A DNA stretch of 64,000 nucleotides from Eledone cirrhosa (Eukaryota), in NCBI GenBank assembly GCA_964016885.1, contig OZ024758.1, positions 16,244,001 to 16,308,000 on the forward strand, in the 5' to 3' direction. Numbering within the stretch: position 1 is the first letter of the stretch; each line of letters opens with the position of its first letter. This document shows, piece by piece, positions 32,074 to 33,084 of this stretch. Made by a program: the position numbers and the translations under genes. Below the pieces are notes generated by a model. It had not been told where the DNA came from, ran no database searches, and saw only the letters and a program-made list of their open reading frames with translations.

Positions 32074-32879
32074 ATATAAGATCATTTTTTTTGACGTTAG
32101 ATTTTTCCTCCTTAGTTCATTATATTTTTCTTCCTTTCATGCTCGTCTGACTTTTACATGTTACATACTACAATACATAAAAACAAACCCTAACTAATCT
32201 CCTTTATTATATTATATTATTACCATTAGAAAATATTTCGTAAACATATGTATTTTGATGTTAGATATTTCTTTGTTTTCTGCGCTAATTTGTAAACAAA
32301 CTATTTACATATATTACGCACACATATTACATTACATAAAAACAAACTTAAACACTAAATAATTCCTCTAAATTCATAACTCATCCTCTCTTCTACTTCT
32401 TTTCACAGTATATCCTTAATAACATTAATATTTTTATTTTAATAATACATATTAACAATTTCTTTTCCTCGCACATATTAAACCCTTCAATATACAAACC
32501 TTAATTTAATATTATTTTAACCCCCCCTTTTTCTCTTCATCAACTTTTAATTTCAAATTCTTTTAAATTATCTATTATCTTCCAACGGCTTTTTAACTTC
32601 TCTCTGTGAGACAATATATATTTTTCTCAGTTGTAAAGGCTATCTCTCTCTCTCATCTCTCCTCCCATCTCTCATCATCCATCTCTCCTCCTCTCTCATC
32701 CTTCCTTCTTATACTCCTCCTCCACCATTGTCTACTCTCATCTCCTCCTCTTTCTCACCCTCTCCAACCACCCCTCACTTTTTCCCAATATCACACATCA
32801 ATCTTAAATTATTTTTTCATATGTTGATTTAAAACTTCACTATTCACAAGTGTTTTTTAACCTTCATATCATGTATCCT

Positions 32880-32950
32880 TATTTTATCTGATGAAAACGC
32901 AGATATCATCTCATGATGATATTTGTTTTTGAAATGCGCATAATAAAATA
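32880..32950 (+). ncRNA. Type I hammerhead ribozyme, family 1
   Basis: tattttat-CTGATGA-aaacgcagatatcatc-tcat-gatgatatttgttttt-GAAA-tgcgca-TA-ataaaata; predicted cleavage after 32942. Confidence 0.88.
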
Positions 32951-33084
32951 CTTGGAACTCTTTAAACCATCTTTTGATCTTATATTATTTATACTCCAGT
33001 CCTACAAACTGTAGAATGCTACTTATCCGATATTTGCATTGCTTTATTGTACTACAATAAAACTCACCCCCTACACACACACAC

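Follow-up and report, generated by a model that had tools for sequence, protein, structure and literature searches.

A pair of short inverted repeats in the window, the whole stretch of 64,000 nt that was analysed, raises the question of whether the hammerhead-like motif carried by each of them is a ribozyme, and from what kind of mobile element it comes. The current work makes it quite probable that the motif is a real, structurally conserved and probably dimer-type hammerhead in an abundant repeat, most likely derived from a Penelope-like retroelement (PLE).

A preliminary description of this DNA had reported two inverted copies of about 250 bp, and both were recovered. Copies A and B of the unit, located as given in the table, are 89.6% identical across 259 BLASTN columns, with 27 differences (24 substitutions, of which 15 are transitions, and 3 gap columns). 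The segments CTGATGA (32888-32894) and GAAATGCGCATA (32931-32942) have the same letters in both. The earlier observation of an identical core is thus correct, but it does not count as evidence: for 19 positions at 9.3% divergence, identity is at chance level (P=0.155, not significant). The longest identical runs beyond the ribozyme reach 26, 22 and 21 nt. A type I hammerhead descriptor matches the window exactly twice, at copies A and B, and in dinucleotide shuffles of the 42,818 non-microsatellite bases a strict match appeared in 0 of 200 and a loose match in 2 of 200. Neither BLASTN nor the descriptor found a tandem copy of the unit in the window. The two copies lie on opposite strands and face apart, so one transcript cannot hold both in sense, and action would be in trans only. 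They were not accepted as opposite ends of a single insertion, since they differ by 10% and belong to different haplotypes. The window is AT-rich, and about 21,400 of its 64,000 bases are dinucleotide microsatellite by our own mask.

Table. Coordinates of the repeat unit, of its putative ribozyme parts and of other features in the 64,000-nt window
Feature	Position	Strand	Basis or remark
Copy A of the ~256-bp repeat unit	32819-33075	+	BLASTN against copy B; read depth climbs at 32814-32835 and drops past 33075
Copy B of the unit	26047-26304	-	Core from 26236, predicted cut after 26182; (TA)n/(CA)n on either side
Inverted companion at 5' junction of copy B	26319-26347	+	Element's first 10 nt, TGAT, then 23-nt duplicate
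Stem I, 5' strand	32880-32887	+	8 bp with 32943-32950
Stem I extension, 3 bp past a 3-nt bulge	32876-78/32954-56	+	Fold
Catalytic core C3-A9, CUGAUGA	32888-32894	+	Sequence
Stem II: 3 bp (A-U), C.U mismatch (32898/32927), 12 bp, 4-nt loop (32911-32914)	32895-32930	+	Fold
Variable wobble-tolerant stem II sites in X4	32895, 32899, 32902, 32905, 32907, 32910, 32921	+	Variant rows
G12-A13-A14, palindrome AUGCGCAU (32934-32941; A15.1 to U16.1), A17	32931-32942	+	Sequence; predicted cut 32942/32943
Stem I, 3' strand	32943-32950	+	Overlaps AATAAA at 32942-32947
Optional 3' extension	32990-33075	+	Some copies enter (TA)n at 32975-32993, others at 33075
8-bp hairpin in optional 3' extension	33043-33061	+	Contains AATAAA (33056-33061); fold
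(CA)n/(TA)n microsatellite, 3' end of copy A	33073-33171	.	Likely insertion target
G-poor, C/T-rich sequence upstream of copy A	32080-32818	+	(TA)n at 32039-32078 bounds its far end
~190-bp SINE-like repeat copies, among others	2208-2400, 18223-18445, 35335-35525, 47796-48296, 53760-54153, 61420-61600		
tRNA-derived SINE-like repeat	31030-31267	-	Relatives at 3057-3194, 36414-36530, 48434-48578
Three overlapping, internally deleted LINE fragments	9443-13730	-	RVT_1 and zf-RVT matches
Short LINE-type reverse transcriptase fragment	49219-49560	+	FADD motif, RVT_1 E=3e-4; ends in (TA)n
Four-copy ~129-bp tandem repeat, alternating 258-bp higher order	54500-55011		
Minisatellite arrays, 72-bp and ~37-bp	41026-41674 and 50885-51136		
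Small AT-rich dispersed repeat, inverted pair	30763-30959 and 62515-62678		95% identity over 133 nt

The catalytic core (C3 U4 G5 A6 N7 G8 A9 / G12 A13 A14 A15.1 / U16.1 H17) is complete in both copies, with A17 at 32942 in copy A and at 26182 in copy B. Helices I and II enclose the core and the chain ends in helix I, which is the type I topology. The 8-bp stem I and the AUA triplet ending at 32942 were both confirmed, as were the letters of the stem II arms quoted in the preliminary description. The 16-bp stem II given there needs correction, since in both copies it consists of 15 pairs and one C.U mismatch. The first stem II pair is A-U in A and B and G.U in about 55% of X1 depth (a public sequencing run, see below), and not G-C, and the G10.1-C11.1 first pair of the PLE consensus is missing in both copies. 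Position 32895 pairs in the preferred fold and is otherwise an extra base between A9 and 10.1; its A/G variation suits both. No Rfam hammerhead match was obtained at the gathering threshold across the whole window, nor at E<=10 in the 25.5-35 kb region or on either copy by itself, and the long stem II is the likely cause of this silence. Weak Rfam snoRNA and miRNA matches were rejected as far below gathering.

All 6 differences between A and B at paired positions are one-sided swaps between Watson-Crick and G.U pairs, in agreement with the earlier claim that stem II changes keep pairing. Two-sided compensatory changes were found in 0 of 23 pairs between A and B, nor was there any among the family variants listed. 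Because the paired changes are all one-sided, they are not covariation in the R-scape sense.

In fold predictions of the monomer, stems I and II form with pair probabilities of 0.84-1.0 in copy A (about 0.6 for the 3 basal stem II pairs), and stem III has a probability of 0.0, its formation costing 2.9 kcal/mol. Copy B alone has an MFE z-score of only -0.2 to -1.3. For A+A, B+B and A+B alike, the co-fold of minimum free energy takes the double-hammerhead frame: stem III, of 8 bp, forms between the two molecules, and stem I is swapped. The A+A co-fold reaches -49.1 kcal/mol, against 2 x -18.8 kcal/mol for the monomers, and both of its cores are open; in the MFE dimer of copy B, some core bases are also paired. 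The palindrome AUGCGCAU pairs in the modelled dimer with a probability of 0.89-1.0. These models favour the minimal palindromic stem III proposed earlier, as a helix that would form between two molecules. Cleavage after A32942 is predicted to be weak and to take place in the dimer only. Cutting is probably slow because of the AUA triplet, which is a natural yet slower hammerhead triplet (PMC1636495), and the missing G10.1-C11.1 pair. A joint at 32943, the first base past the predicted cut, came from 3 reads of ambiguous direction and was set aside.

The unit is not confined to this window. Words of it were present in 10 of the 13 sequencing runs listed, from 7 organisms, and the family was analysed in four public runs, with contigs in X1, X4 and X9 and reads in X11. 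Contigs with the unit numbered 3,893 in X1, 56 in X4 and 5 in X9. In X11, 5,248 of 12,467,656 reads match it, about 1 in 2,400, a proportion that comes from a reduced-representation library and is hence not a copy number. The family is abundant. Among metagenome and viral contigs the motif had 0 matches, and a 24-mer had 0 in metagenome and genome contigs. The motif also matched 72 prokaryotic loci, none of which looks like the element or forms stems I and II; these were put down to chance.

The variation within the family provides a test of the structure. The tests rest on 40 of the 91 variant rows, those listed, together with totals by kind: for X4, these hold all 9 T>C, 6 A>G and 2 G>A places and leave out one C>T, one A>T and one C>A; for X1, they hold 33 of 43 variable places, including both G>A places. 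The runs have ancestral subfamilies in common and so are not independent tests. Stem I site 32881, listed as a shifted T>G plus indels, was counted as the A>G of copy B. In stem II of X4, the sites that tolerate a wobble were variable at 7 of 17 places, against 0 of 13 for pair-breaking sites (P=0.010). Across the 71-nt ribozyme in X4, all 10 variable sites, including loop 2 and core position 7, were of the tolerated kind (P=1.4e-4; P=0.001 with the single unlisted C>T taken as contrary). Among the variants listed for X1, the tolerated kind made up 8 of 8 (P=0.001), with P=0.16 in the worst case of 5 unlisted transitions counting against. Position 7 (32892) is the sole core-region site among the family variants listed, and no core G is variable in X1 or X4 among them; by test, 0 of 11 core positions vary family-wide, which is not significant (P=0.22-0.29).

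Each of the 8 variable pairs is G.U when read on the + strand, where the - strand would have A.C (binomial 0.004), and the flanks have T>C as their most frequent change. Since the wobbles work on the + strand only and T>C is common in the flanks, neither a symmetric transition bias nor a DNA hairpin explains the pattern. The signal that keeps stem II paired is real and strand-specific, and it suits an RNA of the + strand. The preliminary description had cautioned that transition bias could partly mimic such a pattern; the one-sided and strand-specific changes of the family argue against this. Variation at tolerated stem II sites exceeds that of the flanks about 7-fold (7/17 vs 10/186, P=9e-5), for which constrained flanks and a structure-only constraint on stem II offer the simpler reading. 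Six of the 8 variable paired sites are A/G opposite U, and the other two are C/U opposite G.

Decayed copies are also present, as 13 X1 contigs diverge across the core. Copy A itself has private changes, such as those at 32964, 33016 and 33069, where >99% of X1 depth differs. In X11, the change G32936T occurs in 1,181 of 2,063 reads of one mate class; it breaks the palindrome and makes an AATT. Molecules ending at this AATT numbered 1,141, compared with 49 at the native AATT (32807-10), and in X1 the change stands at <0.001%. It was read as restriction-site enrichment of decayed copies in RAD reads.

The ends of the copies indicate how the unit was inserted. Most family copies begin near 32818, and between about a tenth and a quarter of the depth runs on upstream, as copy A does. 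In all four runs, a minority of the family also contains 32781-32818. Copy A is therefore probably one of the longer 5'-truncated copies, and homology may well extend upstream of 32770, the start of the family comparison. In the G-poor sequence upstream, G makes up only 1-2% across 32301-32600 and 32701-32800, and a degenerate ~160-bp tandem duplication lies at 32085-32420. A 14-nt inverted match at 32066-32084 was discarded as within chance for AT-rich DNA by our estimate. At the 3' side, copies pass into (TA)n at 32975, 32985, 32993 and 33075, and the loose-end rows at 32985, 32993 and 33075 all do so. Reads of X11 past 33075 enter (TA)n, and not another unit, in 1,578 cases. Copies A and B both run into (TA)n as well, in a window that is itself one-third microsatellite, which weakens the signal of an insertion bias. 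The optional 3' extension holds the 8-bp hairpin of the table and likewise one at 33002-33014, and both are possible recognition signals for a reverse transcriptase. The family variant 33051 sits in a hairpin loop, and a copy B change at 33057 gives U.G.

Inverted pieces accompany the unit. An inverted copy of the element's own start stands before 32818 in 11 X1 contigs, and in one X9 contig a fragment of the 3' part is inverted. Among the joints listed, 6 of 9 are opposite-strand and 0 of 9 head-to-tail, with the reservation that raw-read joints in a RAD library may be chimeras. Beside copy B, the 23-nt duplicate of the companion (26325-26347) equals the core and stem II arm of that copy (26235-26213, - strand) at 23/23 positions (E=1.8e-8, local search). 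The companion bears the variants of B and not those of A, and it appears to have formed during insertion.

The inverted copy adjoining the 5' end, the 5' truncation and the 3' extension are hallmarks of PLEs. Most likely, the ~256-bp unit is the terminal repeat (pLTR/3' end) of such an element, strewn over (TA)n microsatellites as many short copies that are probably dead. We infer the parent and the link to PLEs, since no PLE protein gene was found. None of 12 read-through frames around copy A, 6 of which cover 32080-32818, matched Pfam, and no Pfam match to GIY-YIG was obtained in 109 window frames (101 of the 131 listed outside 9.0-13.8 kb and 8 inside). Pfam matches to reverse transcriptase lie at 9.4-12.3 kb and 49.2 kb, far from copies A and B. 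From the TA targets, it may be guessed that the PLE protein was Neptune-like. Other points also speak against the PLE reading. The G10.1-C11.1 pair is missing and stem II is longer than in published PLE hammerheads, the common 5' boundary near 32818 is sharper than random 5' truncation would leave, and copy B has a companion truncated on both sides, which a textbook 5'-truncated inverted copy is not.

If the unit is of this origin, a source element with a tandem pair of repeats would have supplied the dimer and trimmed the transcript. A single RNA would fold stems I and II without stem III; two RNAs would join via AUGCGCAU, exchange stem I strands and cut after A32942. The reverse transcriptase/GIY-YIG protein of the PLE would then have copied the 3' end into new sites, a process that may have left both the 5'-truncated copies and their inverted 5' companions.

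Several other repeats share the window. A second dispersed repeat, the SINE-like one of ~190 bp, is much commoner, with >12 copies, some of them in tandem, and has no hammerhead descriptor match. An Rfam tRNA match (31202-31259, 29.8 bits) is the head of the SINE-like repeat at 31030-31267. The LINE fragments at 9443-13730, which we take to be L1-Tx1-like, recur with a period of ~1.6 kb at 92% identity. The tandem repeat at 54500-55011 contains CTGACGA on the - strand without a hammerhead fold.

Rival readings of the motif bear either on its catalysis or on its wobbles. If it were non-catalytic, it would be a palindromic repeat or a hairpin of the DNA in which the core arose by chance and transition bias produced the G.U swaps; the non-significant core conservation, the lack of two-sided covariation, the silence of Rfam and the z-score of copy B are in keeping with this. 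Such a reading is very improbable, because 11 core positions, U16.1-H17 and both stems co-occur, with strict matches in 0/200 shuffles, and because a process at the DNA level should be strand-symmetric, yet 8/8 variable pairs are G.U on the + strand (0.004). The ribozyme may instead be real, with its stem II wobbles written by A-to-I editing of the RNA intermediate, besides selection; such editing fits a PLE origin, but it remains an unlikely addition. A reverse transcriptase reads an edited A as G, and the A/G class opposite U (6/8) is of this form. Purine transitions fall in stem II at 5/16 sites, against 4/104 outside (P=0.002), and to these may be added the excess of tolerated stem II sites over the flanks (P=9e-5) and a 5' G neighbour at 0 of 6 A/G sites. 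ADAR has a neighbour-base preference. Editing of this kind does not make the 2/8 sites that are C/U opposite G, and tolerated pyrimidine sites vary as often (2/5) as tolerated purine sites (5/12). X1 and X4, and for the most part X9, vary at the same sites, so that the direction of change is not polarisable, and the same numbers follow if the flanks are constrained and stem II is held by its structure alone. High variability of PLE hammerheads has also been reported already (PMC4209133), and a literature search for the editing reading found nothing.

As to the origin of the unit, it could be the monomer of a non-LTR retrozyme, a tandem, circular-RNA family that is cut and re-ligated by its hammerhead and is present here as dispersed monomers. 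Its 256 bp fall within the range of 150-400 bp, the hammerhead is type I, the 5' boundary is common and there is no ORF; moreover, according to a preprint (bioRxiv 2026.07.22.740005), retrozymes descend from pLTRs and leave scattered monomers behind. We regard this origin as decidedly unlikely, since head-to-tail joints make up 0/9 of those listed, the X11 reads past 33075 enter (TA)n (1,578), the window holds no tandem copy, and the canonical short stem II with loop-loop contact is missing. The intact core and stems of both copies would also suit host-domesticated ribozymes on a local transcript. This is barely credible: each copy is an ordinary haplotype of an abundant family and copy A has private changes, the surroundings are microsatellite-rich without a recognisable gene, and a partner is needed that the locus cannot supply in cis. 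The terminal repeat of a PLE thus stays the preferred reading. A bolder form of it, also unlikely, would see a fixed-ended non-autonomous family that rides on a PLE, with a stem II twice the length of any in the published PLE set; the variety of its hairpin would have arisen in the RNA, in part through A-to-I editing that retrotransposition then fixed. If this form were true, the genome would preserve, in thousands of copies, a record of how selection and editing acted on a ribozyme at the RNA level, and the additional turn of helix might be a novel means of docking or regulating the dimer.

No new ribozyme class and no host function is revealed by this family. With an intact core, very many copies and strand-specific conservation of pairing, it offers a clean natural test set for the role of PLE hammerheads, the in vivo role of which is unsettled according to reviews (PMC6765202, PMC7761336). 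Its stem II is long enough to escape Rfam, and probably also short-stem descriptors, which suggests that such ribozymes may be undercounted. In cephalopods, PLEs are on record (PMC13282606), and 235 Rfam hammerheads have been reported in the giant squid (PMC6962438).

Comparison with known systems places the unit between several published groups. Metazoan non-LTR retrozymes (PMC7229834; bioRxiv 2026.07.22.740005) are likewise short, ORF-less type I units, likely mobilised by and derived from PLEs. They are described as tandem and circular (PMC7229834) and have been proposed to derive from pLTRs, with cleavage in 1 of 9 tested dimers (bioRxiv 2026.07.22.740005). Unlike them, the unit shows no head-to-tail tandem in the window or among the joints listed, although rare arrays may exist elsewhere, and no short helix II with loop-loop contact. 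The (+) hammerhead of sCYDV-RPV (Table 1 of PMC1636495) is also natural and has an AUA triplet and a helix II that is long and interrupted (5+4+4 bp), but it comes from a satellite RNA of a plant virus, its helix III is a stable one of 6 bp and its origin is unrelated.

Among PLEs, 5' truncation, inverted 5' copies, a tail and a microsatellite bias are described as traits (bioRxiv 2021.04.23.441226). The insertion bias is a trait of the Neptune and N-terminal EN clades. The unit resembles the pLTRs of Neptune-type EN+ PLEs (Craig et al. 2021, bioRxiv 2021.04.23.441226) in its microsatellite bias, 5' truncation, inverted 5' copy, optional 3' extension and hammerhead within the repeat, a likeness of repeat traits alone, as clade assignment needs the reverse transcriptase. 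The extension measures ~85-100 nt here and the tail of those pLTRs 30-40 bp (bioRxiv 2021.04.23.441226). Naiads also target (TA)n, yet they are without hammerheads, unlike the unit.

The closest agreement is with the PLE hammerheads of Cervera and De la Pena (2014, PMC4209133), which number thousands per genome and are mostly solo; their helix II is long, their helix III palindromic, their sequence highly variable and their activity as dimers low. As in its metazoan rows (such as those of D. willistoni, Aedes aegypti and Saccoglossus(2)), the hammerhead here is type I with a CUGANGA/GAAA core, its palindromic helix III needs a dimer and its helix II exceeds the canonical 4 bp. The U-rich 5' and AU-rich 3' flanks are shared too, as are mostly dispersed single copies with some close opposite-strand pairs, and the D. 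willistoni row has the same A-U first pair, palindromic loop and AUA triplet. Helix I has 8 bp here and mostly 2-6 in the published rows. The G10.1-C11.1 pair, absent here, is a >80% feature of the PLE consensus, and 3 of the 56 rows (Fig. S3, counted by eye from its text layer) likewise have A-U; with these published exceptions, its absence here is not exclusive. Helix II, rightly called unusually long in the preliminary description, has 15 pairs, against 3-8 bp in the 56 rows. A literature search found no description of this family or of a 15-bp stem II, which is not proof, as other surveys may show long variants. The architecture is thus that of the published hammerhead of PLE terminal repeats (PMC4209133), so that its kind is known, and the long stem II, about twice the longest of the 56 published examples, is its only clearly new feature.
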